The notes below the pieces were generated by a model. That model searched no databases. It was not told the origin of the DNA and was given only the letters and a program-made list of their open reading frames with translations. This document shows, in pieces, positions 1,093 through 40,087 of a stretch of DNA of 46,696 nt (positions within the stretch are counted from its first letter, which is position 1; every line of letters begins with the position of its first letter). Origin of the DNA: Candidatus Omnitrophota bacterium (GTDB lineage: Bacteria > Omnitrophota > Gorgyraeia > Gygaellales > Profunditerraquicolaceae); contig JADHYK010000002.1 in assembly GCA_016782485.1 (NCBI GenBank), positions 1 to 46,696 on the forward strand, written 5' to 3'. Position numbers and translations under genes: made by a program.

Positions 1093-1104
1093 CTATTCCT
1101 CCTT

Positions 1105-1222
1105 AATGAACGCTTAACTTACGGAACGAGTGAAGCGAGTGAACGTAAGTTAATGCGTGAATTAATCCCGAAGCGTGCGCAGTAGATTTCGCAAGAAATC
1201 TACAAGCGTTTACGCGAGGGAC
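1105..1222 (-). repeat. Composite element E1 in the rpsD|rpoA spacer: PU-A variant (1165-1222, ATCCCGAAG..CGAGGGAC) plus hairpin H copy 1 (helix 1110-1158)
   Basis: Read directly from the sequence. Same architecture as 9456-9542, 15137-15278 and 27553-27664. Confidence 0.85.
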
Positions 1223-5884: not shown

Positions 5885-6446
5885 TCAATACCTCAATTTT
5901 TCCGCCCGTGCCTTTAATCTGCTCTGCGGCTCTGCGCGAAAACGCATGCGCCTGCACGGTAAGCGGATTCTTTATCTGGCCATCGCCTAGAATCTTTACT
6001 AATTTGTCCTTATCGCCGATAAGATTATTCTCCTTGAGCACATGAGGGTTTATGAGCGTTTCTTTTATCCTCGATAAGTCCTTCAGGTTTACAATCTGAA
6101 ATTGCCTTTTGCTTCTGGAGGTAAAACCCCTTTTCGGTATCCTGCGGATTAAGGGGGTCTGGCCGCCTTCAAAACCCGGATAAAAATCCCGGCCGGCACG
6201 GGAGGTCTGGCCCTTGCTGCCCCTGGTAGAGGTCTTGCCGTGCCCGGAACTGGGGCCGCGGCCTAAAATTCTTTTGCCCTTGTTTGCTCCGCGGACAGCA
6301 GGCAAATTATGTATACCCAGCCATTTAAGCGAAACCGCAACCTCTTTTTTCTTTTTTGCAGGCGCTTTTCTTTGAACTGCCGGCTTTGGCCCGGCTTTAA
6401 CTTCGTCTTTTTTTCTTATTTCTGGAATTTTTTTCTTCATCTTCAA
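5877..6446 (-). CDS. rplO: 50S ribosomal protein L15 with a Lys/Pro/Ala-rich N-terminal extension of about 40 aa
   Basis: 189 aa ORF. The L15 core starts near [27 protein letters not shown] found no in-frame ATG/GTG/TTG nearer the core. ATGA overlap with rpsE. Confidence 0.9.
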
Positions 6447-6895
6447 ACCTTCAGGTTCTTAAGGCCCTGCGCCGTAGCCTTAATAACATTAACCGGATTA
6501 TTGCTGGTAAGGCACTTGGTTAAAATATCTTTTATGCCCGCTGCTTCGCAAACTGCCCTTACCGGGCCTGCGGCGATTACACCGGTACCCTCCGAAGCAG
6601 GCTTCAATAAAACGCGTGCGGCACCGAATTCACCGACAATTTCATGAGGTATAGTGGAGCCCTCCATGGGGACCTGAAAAAGGCTCTTCTTTGCCTTAGT
6701 AAGCGCCTTACGTATGGCACTGGCAACTTCATTTGCCTTTTCCAGGGCAAAACCAACCCTTCCCCTGGTGTCGCCGACCACAACCAGAGCGCTAAAATGT
6801 AGTTTCTTACCGCCTTTGGTAACCTTTGTTACGCGATTTATGGTAATTACCCGTTCTATTAATTCCGGACCCTGTTCGATATTTACTTCACGCAT
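6443..6895 (-). CDS. rpsE: 30S ribosomal protein S5
   Basis: 150 aa ORF with motif [24 protein letters not shown]. Confidence 0.96.
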
Positions 6896-6898
6896 CTT

Positions 6899-7258
6899 TT
6901 AAAACTCCAATCCGCCTTTTCGCAGGGCCTCGGCAAAGATCTTAACCTTGCCGTGATATAAATAGCCTGCGCGGTCAAATATTATTTTTGTAATCCCTTT
7001 TTCCTTTGCCTTCTGGGCAAAGAGTTGTCCGAAAATTTCCGCTGCCTTGGTATTGACTGCAGCGGGTATTTTCTGCCTGACTTCTTTATTTGTGGTGGAA
7101 TAAGAGAACAGCGTTTTGTTGGCGGTATCATCGATGACCTGGGCGCTAAGATTCTTAAGGCTACGCTGGACTACCAGCCTGGGACGCTGGGTGGTTCCGC
7201 AGATCCTTAATCTTATGCGACGGTGGCGTTTTAATCTTAAGGCTTTTCTCTTGTTCAT
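6899..7258 (-). CDS. rplR: 50S ribosomal protein L18
   Basis: 119 aa ORF in the conserved spc-operon position, with [26 protein letters not shown] at the C-terminus. Confidence 0.96.
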
Positions 7259-7260
7259 AA

Positions 7261-7806
7261 TTATTTGGTGGTAGCCTGGGATTTACCGACCTTTTTCTTT
7301 ATATATTCTCCTGCAAAGCGTATCCCCTTGCCCTTATACGGTTCCGGCGGGAAAATCATGCGTATCTCCATAGCTACCTCGCCTACCTGCTCCTTATCAA
7401 TCCCGCTTACCATAATCTGATTAGGCTTTGGGGTTTCTATCTTTATACCTTCGGGTATGGGAAAATTCACCGGATGTGAAAACCCGAGCTGCATATTCAG
7501 GACCTTTCCCCGCACCTCGGCCTTAAACCCCACCCCCACTATCTCCAACTGCTTGGAATACCCTTCGGTAACGCCTTTAACCATATTAAAGATAAGGGCG
7601 CGAAAAAGCCCGTGCAGCGATTTATCTATCTTTGTATCGCTTAAACGCCCAAGAATAACCTGACCATCCTTTATCTGGAGGCTGATCCTGTCGGATAAAC
7701 TACGGCTCAAGTTTCCCTTCGGACCCTCTACAAATACCGTACCGTCCCTGACCTCTACTTTAACTGCCTGGGGTAAACTTATGGGTTTTTTTCCTATTCG
7801 TGACAT
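7261..7806 (-). CDS. rplF: 50S ribosomal protein L6
   Basis: 181 aa ORF starting MSRIGKKPI. No SD is visible. Hairpin H ends 9 nt upstream of the ATG. Confidence 0.96.
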   Translation of the reverse strand: MSRIGKKPISLPQAVKVEVRDGTVFVEGPKGNLSRSLSDRISLQIKDGQVILGRLSDTKIDKSLHGLFRALIFNMVKGVTEGYSKQLEIVGVGFKAEVRGKVLNMQLGFSHPVNFPIPEGIKIETPKPNQIMVSGIDKEQVGEVAMEIRMIFPPEPYKGKGIRFAGEYIKKKVGKSQATTK

Positions 7807-7810
7807 AATT

Positions 7811-7864
7811 AATGAGCACTTAATTTACGAACACGATAGTGTGAGTAAGTTAATGTGCGAATTA
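7811..7864 (-). repeat. Hairpin H copy 2 (helix 7816-7859), directly upstream of rplF
   Basis: Plus strand gcacttaatttac..gtaagttaatgtgc with the conserved apical gaacacgatagtgtga. Confidence 0.85.
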
Positions 7865-7865
7865 A

Positions 7866-7929
7866 CCCCGCACCTTTTTATTATTCAAAAGTACTTATAA
7901 AAACGTCTTGAATAGTAAAAGGTGCGGGG
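7866..7929. repeat. Single-copy long inverted repeat (13 + 7 bp stem) in the rpsH|rplF spacer
   Basis: ccccgcacctttt..tattcaa / ttgaata..aaaaggtgcgggg. The apical loop contains the palindrome aagtactt. Confidence 0.8.
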
Positions 7930-7985
7930 TAAGTTCGGCCAGACGACTTATGTTCACTTCGTTCCATAAGTCGTGGCCTCACTTA
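7930..7985 (-). repeat. PU-B copy 1 (TAAGTGAGG..CCGAACTTA unit); its first 3 nt are the rpsH TAA stop
   Basis: The mRNA reads TAAGTGAGGCCACGACTTATGGAACGAAGTGAACATAAGTCGTCTGGCCGAACTTA. Confidence 0.85.
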
Positions 7986-8378
7986 CCAAATATATCCGAT
8001 AACTTCTCCGCCTAAACCTTTTTCCCGGGCTTGTTTATCCGTCACTATACCTTGCGATGTGGAAATAATAGCTATCCCCTTGCCCCTTATAACTACTGGA
8101 ATCTTGTCGCGTTTTACGTATACCCGCAAACCAGACCGTGAGACGCGCCGGATATTTCTTATTGCGGGCCTGCCTGCGCTATACTTCAGGTGCACTCTTG
8201 CCGTGCCCTGCTTTTTATCCTCTATAATCTTAAAATCCTCTATGTATTCTTCCTTTTTTAGGATCTCCAGAATGGATTTGATGGTATTGGAAACAGGTAT
8301 ATCCACAACATCCTTCTTGGCCATGATGGCATTGCGTATTATCGTGAATACATCGGCTATTAAATCCGTCCTTGACAT
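7983..8378 (-). CDS. rpsH: 30S ribosomal protein S8
   Basis: 131 aa ORF in the spc-operon position. The TAA stop is the first 3 nt of repeat unit PU-B. Confidence 0.96.
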   Translation of the reverse strand: MSRTDLIADVFTIIRNAIMAKKDVVDIPVSNTIKSILEILKKEEYIEDFKIIEDKKQGTARVHLKYSAGRPAIRNIRRVSRSGLRVYVKRDKIPVVIRGKGIAIISTSQGIVTDKQAREKGLGGEVIGYIW

Positions 8379-8389
8379 CTATACTCCTC

Positions 8390-8575
8390 TCACCAGCTTG
8401 CCTTCCTTATTCCCGGGATCAACCCCTGCCAGGCCAGCTCCCTGAAACAAATCCGGCAAAGCTGAAACCTTCTTAAATACCCTCCGGACCTGCCGCAGAT
8501 ACGGCAGCGGTTATGTGCGCGCGTAGAAAACTTTGCCGGCCGCTTCCATCTTGCTATCTGTGAATTCTTAGCCAT
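8390..8575 (-). CDS. rpsN: 30S ribosomal protein S14, Z-type (zinc-binding, 61 aa)
   Basis: Two CxxC pairs (CRICGRS..CRIC) and the short length typical of S14 type Z. Confidence 0.95.
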
Positions 8576-8578
8576 CCC

Positions 8579-9145
8579 TTATTGGTTCTCCTGGTTTCTA
8601 AAAGGCATCCCGAATGCCTTGAGCAACTCTTTCGACTGCTCCTTGGATTTGCTGTTTTTTATTACGAAGGTAATATCCATGCCCTGCGTGCGGCTGATCT
8701 TATCATACTCTATCTCGGGAAAGATATTCTGCTCGGTCATTCCAAGCGTATAATGGCCGGCCATATCAAAAGCATCGGCTGAAACCCCCCTGAAATCTCG
8801 TATACGCGGAAGGGCGATACTAAGCAGCCGGTCCATAAACTCATACATTATTGCCCTGCGCAGGGTAACTTTGCAGCCGATTGCCTGCCCCTCTCTTATT
8901 TTAAAGTTAGAGATGGCCTTCTTTGCGCGCCTGATCACCGGCTTCTGCCCGGTAATCAATCCCAGTTCTTCCATGGATTTTTCCAATAACTTGATATCCT
9001 GGACCGCCTCTCCGACTCCCATATTCACCACTATCTTCTCTAGGCGCGGGGCGGCAAACCTGTTTTTGAGATTAAAGGCCTGCATCAACTGCGGGACAAT
9101 TTCATTCCTGTATTTTTCCAATAATCTTGGGGTAATTTTATTCAT
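8579..9145 (-). CDS. rplE: 50S ribosomal protein L5
   Basis: 188 aa ORF in the spc-operon position. Confidence 0.96.
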
Positions 9146-9453
9146 ATACCCTCTTTACAGCTCTTACAAAATCTTGATTTGCTGCCGTCTTTTAATACCG
9201 TAAAACCAACCCGCACAGGACGGTTACACTGCTTACAGAAAACCATCAGGTTGGAAATGCTAAGGGGGGCTTCTATCGAAACAATCCCTCCCTGCTGGTC
9301 CTGGCGCGTCTGGCGCTTATGCTTCTTGACCAGGTTTAAACCCTCAACCAGCGCACGCCTGCCTTCAGGCAGAAGTTCCAACACCTTGCCTTTTTTGCCT
9401 CTATCTTTGCCTGCGATTATCTGGACTGTATCGCCTTTTTTTATCTTAAACAT
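9142..9453 (-). CDS. rplX: 50S ribosomal protein L24
   Basis: 103 aa ORF with the KOW motif [20 protein letters not shown]. No SD. Hairpin H ends 7 nt upstream of the ATG. Confidence 0.96.
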
Positions 9454-9455
9454 AA

Positions 9456-9542
9456 AATGAACACTTAACTTACGAGCACGATAGTGTGAGTAAGTTAATG
9501 TGTGAATTTATCCTGAGGCTGCGCAAGCAGCCGAAGGATCTA
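9456..9542 (-). repeat. Composite element E1 in the rplN|rplX spacer: PU-A (9509-9542, opposite orientation) plus hairpin H copy 3 (helix 9461-9503)
   Basis: Plus strand tatcctgaggctgcgcaagcagccgaaggatcta, adjacent to acacttaacttac..gtaagttaatgtgt. Confidence 0.85.
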
Positions 9543-9553
9543 TTGTTCCCCTG

Positions 9554-9922
9554 TCAGATTACCTCTGGAGCCAACGATATAATCTTGGTAAAGTTTTTCT
9601 CCCTCAGTTCTCTTGCTACCGGCCCGAAGACGCGTGTCCCGCGGGGGTTAAACTGATTATCTATAAATACGATGGCATTGCGGTCAAACCTTAAGTAGGA
9701 ACCGTCGGGCCGCCTGATCGGCTTTCTCGTCCTTACTACAACCGCCCTGGCAACCTCACCCTTCTTTATTACCGCTCCGGGAGAAGACTCTTTTATGTTG
9801 ACATTAATTACATCGCCGACGTTAGCGAAACTTTTCCCTTTTGCCCCCAGGACGCCGATCATGGCAACGCGCTTGGCACCGGTATTATCCGCGACATCTA
9901 AAATACTACGCAGCTGAATCAT
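9554..9922 (-). CDS. rplN: 50S ribosomal protein L14
   Basis: 122 aa ORF starting [17 protein letters not shown]. Confidence 0.97.
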
Positions 9923-10196
9923 CAGTCTCCTCTTTTACCTGCGCATAACTAGCAGCCTTCTTAACTATGGCCGCAAGGCGATAGCGCTTATCCTTTGACA
10001 AAGGCCGGGTTTCAATGATGCGTACCGTATCGCCGATTTTTGCGGTATTATTCTGGTCGTGCGCCTTAAATTTACTGTACTTCTTCATGATTTTAGCATA
10101 CTTGGGATGCTTGCTCATTCTCATCACTCTGACGATAATGGTTTTCTGCATCTTATCGCTTATTACAATGCCCTCGTATTCTCTTCTTTTTCCCAT
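9906..10196 (-). CDS. rpsQ: 30S ribosomal protein S17
   Basis: 96 aa ORF in the S10-operon position. It overlaps the rplN start by 17 nt. Confidence 0.93.
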
Positions 10197-10197
10197 T

Positions 10198-10389
10198 CTA
10201 TTTCTCTTTCTTTTCGTTTAAAATGGTCTCGATGCGCGCAATATCCTTCCTGACCAGTGAAAACCTGTGCGGTTTCTCTACCCTGCCGCCATAACGCTGC
10301 AGATTAAGTTTGTACAGCTCCGCTTTAAGCTCTTCTTCTTTCTGGAGCAACTCCTCCCTGGAAAGACCGCGTAGTTGGTCTATCTTCAT
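10198..10389 (-). CDS. rpmC: 50S ribosomal protein L29
   Basis: The true start is the ATG at 10389 (MKIDQLRGLSREELLQKEEELKAEL, 63 aa), with GAAGGA 5 nt upstream. The 115 aa track ORF over-extends through the repeat-filled spacer. Confidence 0.92.
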   Translation of the reverse strand: MKIDQLRGLSREELLQKEEELKAELYKLNLQRYGGRVEKPHRFSLVRKDIARIETILNEKKEK

Positions 10390-10392
10390 CTT

Positions 10393-10456
10393 TATCCTTC
10401 GCTCGTTATTTTTCTGTTCTCGCTCAGGATGACCCCGAACGTAATCGAGGGGGTCA
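10393..10456 (-). repeat. Composite element E2c in the rplP|rpmC spacer: PU-C (10430-10456) plus PU-A (10393-10430)
   Basis: The mRNA reads AAA TGACCCC-CTCGATTACGTTC-GGGGTCA TCCTGAGCGAGAACAGAAAAATAACGAGCGAAGGATAAAG ATG. Confidence 0.85.
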
Positions 10457-10870
10457 TTTATGAATCCTGCTAATAAATTTTGTCCGTAACGGCAACTTAT
10501 AAGCCGCCAGCCTGAAACACTGCCGCGCATACTCTTCCTGCACACCGCCTAATTCAAATAATACACGGCCCCTTTTTATTACAGCAACCCAATGGTCCAG
10601 TTCACCCTTGCCCTTGCCCATACGAACTTCGGCGGGTTTTTTGGTTATGGATTTGTCCGGAAAAATCCTGATCCAGAGTTTTCCGCCCTTATGCAACTGC
10701 CGCGCAAGAATAACGCGCACGGACTCTATCTGCGTATTTTTAATCCAGCCGTTTTCCAGGCATTTTAAACCAAACTCTCCAAACGCCAATTCTGCGCCCG
10801 TTGTGGCAACTCCGCGCCTGGAGCCTTTCTGTAATTTCCGGTATTTTACCCTCTTGGGCATTAATGCCAT
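10454..10870 (-). CDS. rplP: 50S ribosomal protein L16
   Basis: 138 aa ORF starting [12 protein letters not shown]. The TGA stop is embedded in a hairpin stem. Confidence 0.97.
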
Positions 10871-10892
10871 CTTTTAAACCCTGGTATAATCA

Positions 10893-11561
10893 TCAAGACA
10901 TCCTCTTGTTGTTCCCATTATAGGATGTCTTCTTGATAAGAATATCGCCTTTATAAATCCAAACCTTGACCCCTATAAGCCCATAAGTAGTTAGTGCCTC
11001 GGCAAAGCCGTAATCAATGTCTGCGCGAAATGTCTGCAGGGGGACCTTTCCCTGCTTATAGGTTTCGGTGCGCGACATCTCGGCACCGTTAAGGCGCCCG
11101 GCACAACTCACCCTGATGCCCTGGGCACCGGCGTTTATCGACTGTTCCATAGCGCGCTTTACCGCCCTGCGGAAAGCGATCCTCTTCTCTAACTGCATAG
11201 CGATGTTTTCCCCCACCAACTGCGCCTCCAGCGCAGGCATCTTTACTTCCTCAATATCAATAGACATCTCTTTTTTAACGATGTTATTGAGGTCCTCGCG
11301 TAAACGTTCGATATCAGAACCGTGCCTGCCGATGATGATACCGGGGCGCGCACTGAATATGCGGATCCTTATCTTTTCAGTAAGCCTCTCTATAATAATC
11401 CTTGCCACCGCCGCATTTTTGCACTTTTCTTTAATAAATTTCCTTATCTTGTAGTCCTCGAGTATAAAGCGCGCAAAATAAGGCGATTTTGCAAACCAGC
11501 GGCTGTGCCACGTCCTTATAAAACCGACCCTGAGTATAAACGGATGAACTTTTTGTCCCAT
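10893..11561 (-). CDS. rpsC: 30S ribosomal protein S3
   Basis: 222 aa ORF starting MGQKVHP, with a KH domain. Confidence 0.97.
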   Translation of the reverse strand: MGQKVHPFILRVGFIRTWHSRWFAKSPYFARFILEDYKIRKFIKEKCKNAAVARIIIERLTEKIRIRIFSARPGIIIGRHGSDIERLREDLNNIVKKEMSIDIEEVKMPALEAQLVGENIAMQLEKRIAFRRAVKRAMEQSINAGAQGIRVSCAGRLNGAEMSRTETYKQGKVPLQTFRADIDYGFAEALTTYGLIGVKVWIYKGDILIKKTSYNGNNKRMS

Positions 11562-11564
11562 ATT

Positions 11565-11897
11565 TTATCCTTTAATATCCAGCTCTATTCTTATATGCGA
11601 AGTCCTCTTTTTAATCGGGGCGGCCCTGCCGAAAGCAGCGGCCTTAAACCTTTTCCAACTTGGGCCGGAATTGCAAACTATCTTTGATATGTAAAGCTGT
11701 CCCGGATTGAAACCTTTAACTTTTGCATTGGCTACTGCGGAGTTCAATATCTTTGCCAGAAATTCCTTCGGGCGTTTGTTTAATATCCGAAGAATGCTCT
11801 GCGCGGTCAAGACGTCCTTGTGGCGGATAAGCGCCATTACCTGCCTAACCTTCATAGGTGAAACCCTTAAAAACTTGCCCTCTGCCTTAACAATCAT
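11565..11897 (-). CDS. rplV: 50S ribosomal protein L22
   Basis: 110 aa ORF in the S10-operon position. Confidence 0.96.
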   Translation of the reverse strand: MIVKAEGKFLRVSPMKVRQVMALIRHKDVLTAQSILRILNKRPKEFLAKILNSAVANAKVKGFNPGQLYISKIVCNSGPSWKRFKAAAFGRAAPIKKRTSHIRIELDIKG

Positions 11898-11933
11898 TTT
11901 ATCCCCTAACTACCAACTACTATCTACTGACTA
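11898..11933 (-). repeat. Low-complexity GTAG/TAG-rich spacer between rpsS and rplV
   Basis: The mRNA reads TAGTAGTCAGTAGATAGTAGTTGGTAGTTAGGGGATAAA ATG. There is a tandem in-frame TAG TAG after rpsS. Confidence 0.7.
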
Positions 11934-12221
11934 CTATGTTTTATCCGGCGCCTTCTTTGCCTTTACCCCGCCGTGCCTTCTGAATATGCGCGTAGGGGAA
12001 AATTCTCCGAGTTTATGCCCGACCATATTCTCGGTAACAAAAACCGGGATATGTTTTTTTCCGTCATGCACCGCAAAAGTAAATCCTACAAATTCCGGGA
12101 TAATCGTCGAACGCCTCGACCAGGTCTTGATCGCCTGGCGGTTGGCAGAACGGCGTACCCGGTCAACCTTCTTCAAAAGCTTTTCATCTACAAACGGGCC
12201 TTTTTTTAACGAACGGGGCAT
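11934..12221 (-). CDS. rpsS: 30S ribosomal protein S19
   Basis: 95 aa ORF starting [12 protein letters not shown]. Confidence 0.97.
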
Positions 12222-12261
12222 AGTTCCTCCCTGCGGTCGTCAAAATTCAAATTACAAATTT

Positions 12262-12333
12262 CAAAATCCAAAATAAATTCTGTTTTTAATTTTAATTTTT
12301 GGATTTGGGATTTATTTTGACATTTGGATTTTG
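12262..12333. repeat. AT-rich long hairpin built from CAAAATCC/GGATTTTG-type repeats in the 122 bp rplB|rpsS spacer
   Basis: 12270-12278 pairs with 12310-12318 (9 bp). 12262-12269 pairs with 12326-12333 (8 bp). There is a 7-nt bulge and a 31-nt loop. Confidence 0.75.
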
Positions 12334-12343
12334 GCATTTGGAT

Positions 12344-13177
12344 TTATCCTCTCCTTTTAACTATGAATTTACTAGAATACCTCTTCTTATGCCTGGTCTT
12401 ATACCCCTTAGTCGGTTTTCCCCACTTGGACACCGGGTGGGGATTGCCCTGCCCGGATTTACCTTCGCCGCCGCCATGGGGATGGTCCACCGGGTTCATC
12501 GCCAACCCTCTTACCGTCGGGCGTGTTCCGAACCAGCGGCTCCTGCCGGCCTTACCCAAGACTATTGCCTCATGTTCTACATTGCCAACCTGCCCGATGG
12601 TAGCGTGACAATCAAGGCTGACCAGCCTAACTTCTCCGGAAGGAAGTTTTACGTGCGCAACTTCCCCCTCTTTTGCCATAATCTGCGCGCTTGAGCCGGC
12701 GCTCCTTACAATCTGCCCGCCCTGTCCCTTGCTTAATTCTATATTATGAATCGCGGTGCCTGAAGGAATATACCTTAAAAGCATGCAATTCCCTATTTTA
12801 ATTTCGGCTTCCTTCTGGTTTGATGAAACTACGCTATCGCCTACATTCAAACCTAAAGGCGCCAAAATATACCTCTTTACTTTATCAGGATATTCCAATA
12901 ACGCAATCCGGGAGGAGCGGTTGGGGTCATATTCAATAGCAGCGACCTTTGCCGGCACTTCAAACATATCCCTCTTAAAATCAACAATACGCATCATACG
13001 CTTGTGCCCGCCGCCATGGTGCCTGACGGTTATGCGGCCGTAAACATTCCTGCCCCCGGTTTTCTTTAGGGGCCGGATTAATGACTTTTCCGGCCTGTCT
13101 TTGGTAATCTCCGAAAAATCAGGGCCGCTCATCCATCGCCTGCCGCTGCTCGTAGGTTTAAATTTCTTTATTCCCAT
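12344..13177 (-). CDS. rplB: 50S ribosomal protein L2
   Basis: 277 aa ORF with motif [13 protein letters not shown]. Confidence 0.97.
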
Positions 13178-14772: not shown

Positions 14773-14822
14773 TTTCAGCGTAATTTCAGCGTAATTTCAG
14801 CGTAATTTCAGCGTATTTCAGC
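14773..14822 (-). repeat. 11-nt tandem repeat (plus tttcagcgtaa; mRNA TTACGCTGAAA): 3 perfect copies, one copy with a 1-nt deletion, and a partial copy
   Basis: Copies at 14773-14783, 14784-14794, 14795-14805, 14806-14815 and 14816-14822. The last unit abuts the rplC ATG. Confidence 0.9.
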
Positions 14823-18607: not shown

Positions 18608-18702
18608 TAGATCCTTCGCCCCGCCGTTGGCGGGACTCAGGATAACTTCGGTCATAAACTTATGTCGCTCTTCCAGAGCTCCATAAGTTTAGGCCTCACT
18701 TA
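18608..18702 (-). repeat. Composite element E2 in the rpsG|fusA spacer: PU-B copy 2 (18643-18702) plus PU-A (18608-18644)
   Basis: The mRNA reads TGG TAAGTGAGGCCTAAACTTATGG..CCGAAGTTATCCTGAGTCCCGCCAACGGCGGGGCGAAGGATCTA. Confidence 0.85.
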
Positions 18703-19170: not shown

Positions 19171-19200
19171 GCTTCGACTCGCTCCTGACTTTTATTTTAA

Positions 19201-19246
19201 TACCAGCGCTCGCTCAGCATGACCCTCAAGCGCAGCGAATGGGTCA
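19201..19246 (-). repeat. Degenerate E2c in the rpsL|rpsG spacer: PU-C (19220-19246) plus a truncated PU-A
   Basis: The mRNA reads AAA TGACCC-ATTCGCTGCGCTTGA-GGGTCA TGCTGAGCGAGCGCTGG. Confidence 0.7.
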
Positions 19247-23642: not shown

Positions 23643-23743
23643 AGGTCCTTCGCTTGACTTCTCTTAAATTCTCTGCGTAAGCTCAGGATAAGTTCGGGCA
23701 TAAACTTATGTTCACTTCGTTCCATAAATTTAGCCCTCACTTA
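23643..23743 (-). repeat. Composite element E2 in the rpoB|rpoC spacer: PU-B copy 3 (23689-23743) plus PU-A (23643-23690)
   Basis: The mRNA reads AAG TGA within TAAGTGAGGGCTAAATTTATGGAACGAAGTGAACATAAGTTTATGCCCGAACTTATCCTGAGC..GCGAAGGACCTTA. Confidence 0.85.
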
Positions 23744-27536: not shown

Positions 27537-27552
27537 TTTATTTTCCTCCTTA

Positions 27553-27664
27553 AATGAGCGCTTGATTTACGAGCATGACAATGCGAGTAAGTCAATGCGC
27601 GAATTTATCCCGAGTCCCTCGCGCCATAACAAAAATATAATATGCGCTCGGGACGAGGGATCTA
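27553..27664 (-). repeat. Composite element E1 in the rplJ|rplL spacer: PU-A variant (27607-27664, contains the rplJ TAG stop) plus hairpin H copy 5 (helix 27558-27600)
   Basis: The mRNA reads CAA TAG ATCCCTCGTCCCGAGCGC..GGCGCGAGGGACTCGGGATAAATTC-H-CTCATTTAAGGAGGAAAATAA ATG. Confidence 0.85.
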
Positions 27665-30207: not shown

Positions 30208-30275
30208 TAGATCCTTCGCTCGCCTTCGGCGGGCTCAGGATAAGTTCCCCGCCATGATTCGTGGCGGGTCACTTA
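30208..30275 (-). repeat. Composite element E2 in the rpmG|tRNA-Trp spacer (PU-B ends with a PU-C-like inner stem, plus PU-A)
   Basis: The mRNA reads AAA TAAGTGACCCGCCACGAATCATGGCGGGGAACTTATCCTGAGCCCGCCGAAGGCGAGCGAAGGATCTA. Confidence 0.85.
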
Positions 30276-30428: not shown

Positions 30429-30564
30429 ATTCCAATGTTATCAATTTAGATCCTTCGTCGCTGTCGCTCCTCAGGATAAGTTCGGTCATAAACTTACGTT
30501 CCCGCTTCGCTTCGCTCGCGGTCCATAAGTTTAGACCTCACTTAGCTGGAGACGGGAATCGAAC
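30429..30564 (-). repeat. 136 bp direct repeat, copy 1 (E2 element 30447-30544 plus the tRNA-Thr 3' fragment)
   Basis: 136/136 identical to 30636-30771 by hand comparison (offset 207 bp). Confidence 0.9.
30544..30564 (-). pseudogene. Orphan copy of the 3'-terminal 21 nt of tRNA-Thr (T-loop half, T-stem 3' strand, acceptor 3' strand)
   Basis: GTTCGATTCCCGTCTCCAGCT is identical to 30751-30771. It is part of the 136 bp perfect direct repeat. Confidence 0.85.
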
Positions 30565-30598: not shown

Positions 30599-30629
30599 AA
30601 TCCTGAGGCCTAAAAGGCCGAAGGACCTC
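30599..30629 (+). repeat. Solo PU-A in the opposite orientation inside the 71 bp segment between the two 136 bp repeats
   Basis: Plus strand aatcctgaggcctaaaaggccgaaggacctc. Confidence 0.7.
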
Positions 30630-30635
30630 TGAAAA

Positions 30636-30771
30636 ATTCCAATGTTATCAATTTAGATCCTTCGTCGCTGTCGCTCCTCAGGATAAGTTCGGTCATAAAC
30701 TTACGTTCCCGCTTCGCTTCGCTCGCGGTCCATAAGTTTAGACCTCACTTAGCTGGAGACGGGAATCGAAC
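30636..30771 (-). repeat. 136 bp direct repeat, copy 2 (E2 element 30654-30751 plus the 3' 21 nt of the intact tRNA-Thr)
   Basis: Identical to 30429-30564. The PU-B terminus TAAGTGAGG uses the tRNA discriminator T as its first base. Confidence 0.9.
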
Positions 30772-36319: not shown

Positions 36320-36414
36320 TAGATCCTTCGCCCTTCACTTTGTTCAGGGCTCAGGATAAGTTCGGCCAGACGACTTAGCTTCGCTTATCGCTCACTAAGT
36401 CGTGGCCTCACTTA
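36320..36414 (-). repeat. Composite element E2 in the LysM-lipoprotein|phoH spacer: PU-B copy 6 (36357-36414) plus PU-A (36320-36358)
   Basis: The mRNA reads AAG TAAGTGAGGCCACGACTTAGTGAGCGATAAGCGAAGCTAAGTCGTCTGGCCGAACTTATCCTGAGCCCTGAACAAAGTGAAGGGCGAAGGATCTA. Confidence 0.85.
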
Positions 36415-39882: not shown

Positions 39883-40087
39883 TCTCACACCCCCTTATTG
39901 TCGCTCGCTACGCTCGCTCCTTAAGAGGGGGCTTGCCCCCTCTTAATGTTCTCCCCCAAACGTGGGGGACATCGCTTTTCCCCCACACCCCCTTAGGTTC
40001 TTTCGCCTGTTCTATTCATTTTGCGAAAGAACCTATTATTTTGCGGTAAAAGGTAAACTCAAGAAGATTTTTCCTTCTTGAGTAATT
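39883..40087 (-). promoter_or_regulatory. Structured 5' leader of hup, about 200 nt (four or more stem-loops, G5/C5 tracts, duplicated SD box)
   Basis: Hairpins at 39921-39946, 39952-39969 (alternative 39962-39986), 39996-40033 and 40058-40082. The 12-nt repeat cacaccccctta occurs at 39886-39897 and 39984-39995. Confidence 0.5.

Follow-up and report, generated by a model that had tools for sequence, protein, structure and literature searches.

What kind of element is PU-B, a short palindrome whose copies lie at gene boundaries of an uncultured Omnitrophota bacterium and mostly begin with the stop codon of the gene before them? We addressed this question in a window of 46,696 nt, which is an entire contig (C39) of a metagenome-assembled genome (MAG; 1.04 Mb, 62 contigs, 47% GC, 89.8% completeness). 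All genes of the window lie on the - strand and comprise the rpoBC, str, S10, spc and alpha ribosomal-protein clusters together with secE-nusG. A preliminary description of the window had compared PU-B to repetitive extragenic palindromes (REP), bacterial interspersed mosaic elements (BIME) and miniature inverted-repeat transposable elements (MITE). We favour, with moderate confidence, the reading that PU-B is one class of a phylum-wide set of modular hairpin cassettes which carry no gene, are dispensable, resemble REP/BIME and are read as a folded single strand.

The PU-B hairpin and its family

The six PU-B copies of the preliminary description were confirmed in the sequence (Table 1), as were a short hybrid copy (TAAGTGACCCGCC...GGCGGGGAACTTA), the use of the initial TAA of a unit as stop codon by four genes and of an overlapping TGA by rpoB, and the first T of one copy, at 30751, as the 3' end of tRNA-Thr (ARAGORN). 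The terminus ascribed to all copies held for five, which end CCGAACTTA, and had to be amended for the copy at 18643, which ends CCGAAGTTA. The apical sequence GGAACGAAGTGAACA is common to the copies at 7930 and 23689, in different stems. The string TAAGTGAGG occurs six times in the window, on the - strand only; shuffled sequences contain it 0.26 times on average and none of 100 reached six. A genome-wide census showed many copies outside the window, the MAG holding 15 with exact termini and 32 by profile search at E <1e-5.

PU-B is a hairpin of ~57 nt. Its 5-bp closing stem, TAAGT/ACTTA, includes the TAA and leads to a symmetric 2x2 loop in which 5'-GA-3' stands opposite 5'-GA-3', a tandem G.A/A.G mismatch in the context TGAG...CGAA. 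Above the mismatch come a long inner helix, a bulge of 1-2 nt, a second GA...GA motif near the apex, and an apical mini-hairpin with a GAA or GNNA loop. Exactly the same architecture is found in hairpin H (TTAATGAGCAC...GTGCGAATTAA) and in a shorter hairpin, ATCCYGAG...CGARGGAT. We denote by T1 a type-1 hairpin (PU-B or H), by T2 the shorter type-2 hairpin, by C a central hairpin and by H' an inverted H. The preliminary description had missed that PU-B and H are one hairpin type in opposite orientations, that a near-invariant tandem G.A mismatch is common to all modules, and that PU-B is usually the first half of a two-hairpin unit. In that unit the last A of T1 is the first base of T2 and CTA follows T2, so that T1 (~57 nt), T2 (~30 nt) and CTA make up ~91 nt. 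About 24 of the 32 PU-B copies continue into T2, and ~5 into a C-type hairpin like that at 7866-7929. A longer form, T1 followed by a central hairpin and an inverted T1, is exemplified by the spacer between rpsH and rplF (rpsH|rplF), where the order proposed earlier was recovered: the 176 nt at 7807-7982 hold PU-B, then the hairpin at 7866-7929, then H on the + strand, and the middle hairpin is indeed unique, with no second copy in the MAG. The unit occupies the entire gap between two genes, and mosaicism is evident from an identical T2 joined to different T1 partners at three loci.

A structural scan for N5-GA-stem...stem-GA-N5' returned 66 matches, while other dinucleotide cores returned 5-36, and the 72 matches of the TC/TC core are the GA set read on the opposite strand. 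With a 4-bp outer stem, 125 of 188 GA/GA hairpins fell in intergenic sequence, which makes up ~7% of the genome. In an alignment of 27 copies, 96.5% of the stem cells pair, double changes are found in 10 of 17 pairs (equalled in 0 of 500 shuffles), and pairing falls to 20-42% in slid controls. A set of 64 distinct copies, from 43 loci in ~37 genomes, gave 96.9% paired cells, double changes in 12 of 17 pairs and again 0 of 500 shuffles. In that set the mismatch positions are almost fixed (G 59/61, A 61/61, G 63/64, A 63/64) while the pairs flanking them vary among GC, AU and CG; the inner-helix core AxTTA/TAAxT is near-invariant too. The terminal stems also covary (TAAGT/ACTTA, TAAAT/ATTTA, TCAAT/ATTGA, CAAAT/ATTTG). 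Because the mismatch is kept while neighbouring pairs covary, a folded single strand appears to be under selection.

The family extends across the phylum, which the preliminary description had not seen. A covariance model trained on PU-B (R1), with which we scored 14 candidates per genome and to which H-type hairpins also respond at lower bits, found a match in 255 of the 401 Omnitrophota genomes (187 of 282 genera), scoring as high as 80 bits in other families, and none in ten genomes from other phyla. Its matches number 35 (L057/G406) and 16 (L014/G412) in two MAGs that bear the label uncultured Planctomycetia/Planctomycetales, and the S8 protein of one MAG so labelled is 50% identical to that of the window; either these labels are wrong or the family extends past NCBI's Omnitrophota. 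Catalogue searches were negative: in Rfam 15 only the two tRNAs reached the gathering threshold, the E-value mode giving only sub-threshold noise from hairpins that resemble miRNA precursors, and literature text searches found no published description of these hairpins. The PU-B/H/T2 family is thus apparently undescribed.

Table 1. Hairpin modules and associated repeats. Positions are those of the window unless a contig of the MAG is named.
Feature	Position	Strand	Remark
TAAGTGAGG	7977-7985, 18694-18702, 23735-23743, 30536-30544, 30743-30751, 36406-36414	-	
H-class T1, antisense	1103..1165	+	abuts Shine-Dalgarno sequence of downstream gene
Hairpin H, T1 architecture, antisense to genes	7809..7865	+	5' end 2 nt from rplF start codon
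Central hairpin C, CCCCGCACC...GGTGCGGGG	7866..7929	-	unique in MAG
PU-B (T1), sense	7930..7985	-	R1 77.9 bits; TAA is rpsH stop (7983-7985)
Antisense unit, H 9454-9510 and T2 9510-9539	9454..9539	+	ends right before rplX start codon
T2 ATCCTGAG...CGAAGGAT and CTA	18608..18643	-	second half of unit, before fusA
PU-B	18643..18702	-	TAA is rpsG stop (18700-18702); present in all near-identical strains
T2 variant	23645..23689	-	before rpoC
PU-B	23689..23743	-	overlapping TGA is rpoB stop (23737-23739)
Antisense unit, H 27551-27607 and nested T2 27607-27661	27551..27661	+	absent from five strains
T2 3' of hybrid T1	30211..30241	-	before tRNA-Trp
Short hybrid T1, TAAGT-GA-CCCGCC...GGCGGG-GA-ACTTA	30241..30275	-	TAA is rpmG stop (30273-30275)
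T2 of duplicated block	30450..30477	-	
PU-B	30477..30544	-	100% identical to copy 30684-30751; inside 136-nt duplicated block
Antisense T2	30600-30626		between the two 136-nt blocks
T2 after tRNA-Thr PU-B	30657..30684	-	
PU-B	30684..30751	-	immediately 3' of tRNA-Thr; first T is last base of tRNA
T2 and CTA	36320..36357	-	100% identical to T2 at C45 10946-10983 and to T2 of the L081 cassette
PU-B	36357..36414	-	TAA is stop of LysM gene (36412-36414)
GC-rich 220-330 nt repeat family	C16 19413-19645, C58 12428-12889, C46 12758-13108		
GC-rich 220-330 nt repeat family, further copies	C36 17126-17385, C47 7741-7986, C29 75-295		

Gene boundaries and exchange between strains

In 18 of the 32 copies the first three bases of PU-B terminate an upstream frame that has been open for 50 codons or more, and in two more the overlapping TGA is the stop, which brings the copies supplying the upstream stop to 20 of 32; two copies adjoin the 3' end of a tRNA-Thr. 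Relative to co-directional flanking genes, all 16 TAAGT-type copies of this genome and five PU-B-like variants lie in sense (21/21), and 23 H-type copies lie antisense. The 5' ends of H abut CAT, a start codon on the other strand, within 0-3 nt, or CCTCC, a Shine-Dalgarno sequence on the other strand. On the gene strand the CTA of an antisense unit reads TAG and is the stop codon of tufA and of rplJ, the latter provided by the unit 27551..27661. Read inward, a unit has a stop at both ends (T1 opens with TAA and the TGA that overlaps it, the CTA side with TAG), and therefore closes the upstream gene at once in either orientation. At several junctions of the spc operon in 41 other Omnitrophota, PU-B was again in sense (8/8) and H antisense (10/10). 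In other classes PU-B-like hairpins also lie antisense, against Shine-Dalgarno sequences, and the split of orientation between PU-B and H is thus specific to the lineage.

Orthologous spacers revealed presence and absence of cassettes between strains. The rpsH|rplF spacer is unusual, as the preliminary description had supposed: six contigs from other samples, with flanks 99.8-100% identical and an identical RpsH, read TGG TAA AGCC ATG, a spacer of 4 nt in place of the window's 176 nt. The window lacks the AGCC; its 176 nt thus replace these four bases and nothing is duplicated. Both alleles are present in one metagenome run (X2), the empty one at a depth of 184 and the filled one at 64-82; the filled allele makes up ~15-17 of 42-47 in run X1, and runs X5 and X6 contain the empty form only. 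The read depth of the C hairpin equals that of the filled allele, without excess (X1, X2), and the best matches to the modules of this cassette in the MAG are 91% for PU-B, 96% for H and none for C. Most relatives have a spacer of 5-17 nt here. The PU-B + C + H' composite is shared by three distant genomes (S8 66-73% identical); stems homologous to C occupy the same place in L029, L026 and L009.

A 1-nt gap between rplJ and rplL in five strains corresponds to 125 nt in the window and in one other strain; the filled form, in which 127 nt replace 19 nt, gives RplJ a different tail, four residues shorter, and takes its TAG from the cassette. At rpmC|rpsQ one strain has an extra antisense unit, with a T2 100% identical to those of two other loci and an H at most 94% identical to any copy. 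At rpsL|rpsG, a 97%-identical strain has PU-B and T2 in place of a TGACCC...GGGTCA hairpin of the window. Compared with one contig, five spacers are replaced and ~25 single nucleotide polymorphisms (SNPs) are found elsewhere in ~25 kb, none of them at 6280-12374; comparison of the rplI-dnaB-bamA locus (C45) with another strain found no cassette difference. In the four comparisons of filled and empty alleles, 4-19 nt or more were replaced with no target duplication. These comparisons show that the cassettes are dispensable, that they are exchanged or lost between near-identical strains, and that modules reassort between loci. Within one population, the turnover of cassettes by gain, loss or exchange outpaces the accumulation of most point changes. 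Spread within genomes is indicated by the copy number, by the identical T2 with different partners, and by two neighbouring junctions of L009 whose PU-B core hairpins (bases 6-47 of 47) are identical.

Some further observations concern these boundaries and alleles. The empty rpsH|rplF allele, TAAAGCCATG, has no Shine-Dalgarno sequence. In L021 and L030 the rpsH|rplF spacer, TAAGTGAGGACATAAGTCTATG, consists of the initial 17 nt of PU-B and a CT, after which comes the ATG; it may be a solo PU-B 5' arm, its GAGG now serving as Shine-Dalgarno sequence. At rpsL|rpsG the ATG of rpsG lies inside the closing stem of a T2-like hairpin. Contig ends of the MAG overlap by 600-840 nt at 93-96% identity (C43/C32, C7/C5, C24/C23, C50/C30, C27/C10), which indicates that the MAG mixes strains and that its contigs often break at polymorphic places. 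Runs of N in four sequences (L082, L095, L143, L144) lie at or beside the polymorphic spacers rpsH|rplF, rplJ|rplL, rpmC|rpsQ and rplB|rpsS; they may be scaffolding gaps at two-allele sites, sequence masking being another possibility.

The strand proposed to be read and the candidate movers

Predicted as RNA, the strand with the GA core is 5.7 kcal/mol more stable than its complement in 19 of 19 PU-B and 23 of 23 H copies. Placement in this genome puts the stable G.A version after stop codons and the weaker one (by ~6 kcal/mol) before start codons, which fits selection on mRNA. In H copies it is nevertheless the non-mRNA strand that retains the G.A mismatch. G:T wobbles number 19 on the GA strand against 5 on the complement (PU-B 7 against 1, H 12 against 4; p=0.007 together), small counts from related copies that are not independent, a limitation to be set with the objections listed below. 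The conservation of G.A/A.G amid covarying neighbours, with the wobbles on the same purine strand in either orientation, leads us to suggest that recognition is of one strand in folded form, in the simplest case single-stranded DNA. We envisage two layers: a factor would read the folded GA strand regardless of transcription, and mRNA selection would then filter orientation and edges, probably setting which copies survive, which way they point and where they end. We infer both the mover and any function as RNA. The copying enzyme is probably not among the Y1/RAYT genes examined (RAYT, REP-associated tyrosine transposase).

Several points weigh against our reading of PU-B as a gene-less, single-strand-read cassette. 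The strain comparisons caught no de novo insertion, since in every difference one sequence stands in for another and no target is duplicated; recombination in short tracts is evident from small clusters of SNPs, and the strain alleles may just have been shuffled by homologous exchange between co-occurring strains. Neither the MAG nor runs X1 and X2 contain an identical copy from which the rpsH|rplF cassette could have come. Conservation of sequence across a phylum is unusual for selfish repeats and fits a conserved host function as well. A mobilising gene could be missing from a MAG that is ~90% complete. Y1 presence is positively associated with PU-B (2x2 table 218/37/101/45, odds ratio 2.6, p=1.7e-4, uncorrected for phylogeny or completeness). 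With 943 of 992 gene junctions (95%) co-directional, the direction of transcription is inseparable from that of replication. Finally, the gene calls used for placement and intergenic counts are our own codon-score calls, which are crude.

The alternative that survives best, which we regard as possible and hold only tentatively, is that the hairpins are operon punctuation acting as RNA, a stable hairpin rising from the stop codon, with the strain differences due to allelic exchange. Such hairpins would protect the upstream cistron from 3' exonucleases and might mark a processing site or tune termination and re-initiation by drawing stop and start close to each other; a conserved host factor reading the G.A motif would explain the conservation across the phylum. 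Strict orientation in this genome and in the spc operon of the 41 relatives agrees with it, as do the stable G.A version after stops and the weaker complement before starts, edges placed exactly at a stop, Shine-Dalgarno sequence or ATG, the GAA or GNNA apical loops, and a sequence kept across 187 genera. The rplF, rplX and rpsJ starts (7806, 9453 and 15132) have no Shine-Dalgarno sequence, and an H hairpin ends 1-2 nt away from each, also in its favour. Long spacers are almost fully absorbed in predicted structure, leaving a median of ~15 exterior nt unpaired, but spacers without these hairpins are absorbed equally. Relatives carry hairpins at a given junction only sporadically, and near-identical strains can lack them there; H keeps its mismatch and wobbles on the non-mRNA strand, PU-B-like hairpins of other classes lie antisense, and Rfam yields no match, all of which argue against this explanation.

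A variant that combines both layers, which we rate as unlikely, holds that a conserved enzyme, other than the Y1/RAYT genes examined, reads T1 and T2 through the G.A core and swaps whole cassettes, the hairpins serving as operon punctuation as well. Cassettes would then be written exactly from the stop codon to the start codon or Shine-Dalgarno sequence, and the RNA hairpins would take up the spacer in structure, keeping termination coupled to the next initiation over 100-200 nt.

Movement in trans by a Y1 transposase of the phylum (RAYT or IS200-like), as for REP and for REPINs, the RAYT-associated doublets of REP, with the gene missing from the incomplete MAG, seems to us quite improbable. 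Y1 domains are found in 319 of 401 Omnitrophota genomes and go with PU-B at the odds ratio given above; Y1 enzymes are generally known to read imperfect hairpins with conserved mismatches (PMC3116915, PMC4690160), and PU-B...H' inverted pairs look like REP doublets. Against this, 37 genomes have PU-B and no Y1 gene, several of them with at least 12 scored copies. No transposase lies nearby, as noted in the preliminary description, and in the whole MAG (~90% complete) we found no Y1 domain, no multicopy repeat of the size of an open reading frame (ORF) and no RAYT-type repeat doublet. A link to a RAYT gene elsewhere, for which the preliminary description had suggested a search, was not borne out in relatives either: 20 RAYT-like loci, of the same family as the host, and 6 IS200-like loci have no T1 or T2 in 0.4-2.3 kb of flank on each side, and the 13 RAYT-like genes whose flanks were read have their own, different inverted repeat on both sides, mostly GGGACGGTTCT...AAGTGTCCCC-like. 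Genuine RAYT/REPIN systems therefore exist in Omnitrophota, with a repeat other than PU-B. The RAYT-like genes (L122-L141; G171, G222, G207, G324 and others) encode ~160-240 aa, and many adjoin the same neighbour gene.

The preliminary description had noted a likeness to MITEs. Descent of the cassettes, as such MITEs, from a DDE transposon (IS630- or IS5-like), with inverted repeats at both termini and a duplicated TA or TAA target, is largely refuted and very improbable: the composite spacers with inverted T1 ends (TAAGTGAG...CTCATTAA, ~125-225 nt, intergenic, multicopy) have that appearance, but filled and empty alleles differ by replacement of 4 to 19 nt (AGCC by 176 nt at rpsH|rplF) without duplication, the TA/TAA ends belong to a covarying closing stem (e.g. 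TCAAT/ATTGA, CAAAT/ATTTG), the MAG has no ORF-sized multicopy repeat, and single hairpin modules reassort independently.

Other candidates were rejected. Hairpins that also follow rpoB, the LysM gene, tRNA-Thr and many non-ribosomal genes, and that near-identical strains lack, do not form a ribosomal-protein autoregulatory leader. The loop is a plain symmetric 2x2, with no 3-nt bulge or CUGA core, unlike kink-turn, box C/D, hammerhead or sarcin-ricin motifs. PU-B is followed by TCCTGAG... or CCCCGCA..., never by the T run of an intrinsic terminator, and has no R/L boxes as in an integron attC. No phage or viral carrier was found: the spacer had no blastn match in phage records and the exact pattern none in viral contigs (IMG/VR).

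Known repeat systems and other repeats of the window

The likeness to REP/BIME was right in kind, PU-B belonging to a dispersed, modular, mosaic and intergenic palindromic repeat family. REP/BIME in Enterobacteria and REPIN-RAYT in Pseudomonas are likewise short, imperfect extragenic palindromes in tens of copies (PMC3116915, PMC3337134, PMC5581495, PMC3733652). PU-B has ~32 copies, nearly all intergenic, and its modules show the few unit types in fixed order, both orientations and linkers of a BIME, as T1-T2-CTA and T1-C-inverted T1. Shared with REP/BIME are also mosaic units in both orientations, conserved mismatches in the hairpin, inverted doublets, and a position inside operons right after stop codons where, as RNA, stable 3' hairpins are predicted. 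REP hairpins carry a GTAG or CGTC tag at one end (PMC3733652). PU-B differs in having neither tag; its ends are TAAxTGAG and CGAAxTTA on one strand, the complements on the other, and its first bases are the stop codon itself. It differs further in that none of the 26 Y1 genes checked lies near PU-B hairpins and the host has no Y1 gene, and in that the PU-B sequence is kept across a phylum, whereas REP are specific to a species.

A comparison with further systems gives partial likenesses. A few modules (boxA, boxB, boxC) make up the BOX elements of Streptococcus pneumoniae, which are not known to be tied to stop codons, and the Correia elements (NEMIS) of Neisseria are hairpin-forming inverted repeats with TA target duplication and 26-bp terminal repeats. 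Like these, PU-B cassettes are modular or hairpin-forming, intergenic, co-transcribed with genes and variable between strains, but neither is known to have the tandem G.A core or the phylum-wide span of the PU-B family. In attC sites and IS200/IS605 ends, it is the structure of one folded single strand that is conserved, with non-paired positions kept while the stem sequence covaries. PU-B resembles them in this one respect, its fold and unpaired positions being conserved while its stems covary; it differs in having no R/L box consensus and no conserved 5' target (the 18 nt upstream of T1 are not conserved, and the TAA is part of the covarying stem). Rickettsia palindromic elements are also small palindromes spread in a reduced genome and tolerated at gene boundaries, but those are in frame and translated, while PU-B lies outside the coding sequence and ends it.

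The family adds a large, apparently undescribed repeat system to an entire uncultured phylum of very small bacteria. Unlike REP, its hairpin carries the stop codon and its sequence is kept across at least 187 genera. Conservation across the phylum combined with rapid turnover raises the question of a conserved factor that reads the G.A hairpin, and the near-invariant tandem G.A core offers a simple handle for binding and reporter tests. In practice, the cassettes break assemblies at polymorphic spacers, give essential proteins altered C-terminal tails and lead gene callers astray at start and stop codons.

Other repeats were seen beside these hairpins. A block of 136 nt is repeated at 100% identity at 30429-30564 and 30636-30771 of the window, 207 nt apart, and contains 20 nt of the 3' end of tRNA-Thr, PU-B, T2 and 20 nt more. 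A further hairpin type, TGACCC...GGGTCA or TGACGGGCC...GGCCCGTCA, is found at 19171-19243, 2249-2324 and 39889-39920, with its first three bases, TGA, as the upstream stop codon. The rpsJ|rplC spacer (14773-14816) consists of four tandem copies of the 11-mer TTTCAGCGTAA, and has a different sequence in strain L142, with ~40 clustered differences. The rplB|rpsS spacer (12222-12343) is an AT-rich palindrome of 7-base units (CCAAATG, CAAAATC), and one near-identical strain has a 25-nt spacer there and a different RplB C-terminal tail. Elsewhere in the MAG, another, GC-rich repeat family of 220-330 nt forms long imperfect intergenic palindromes, whose copies are 82-95% identical (Table 1).

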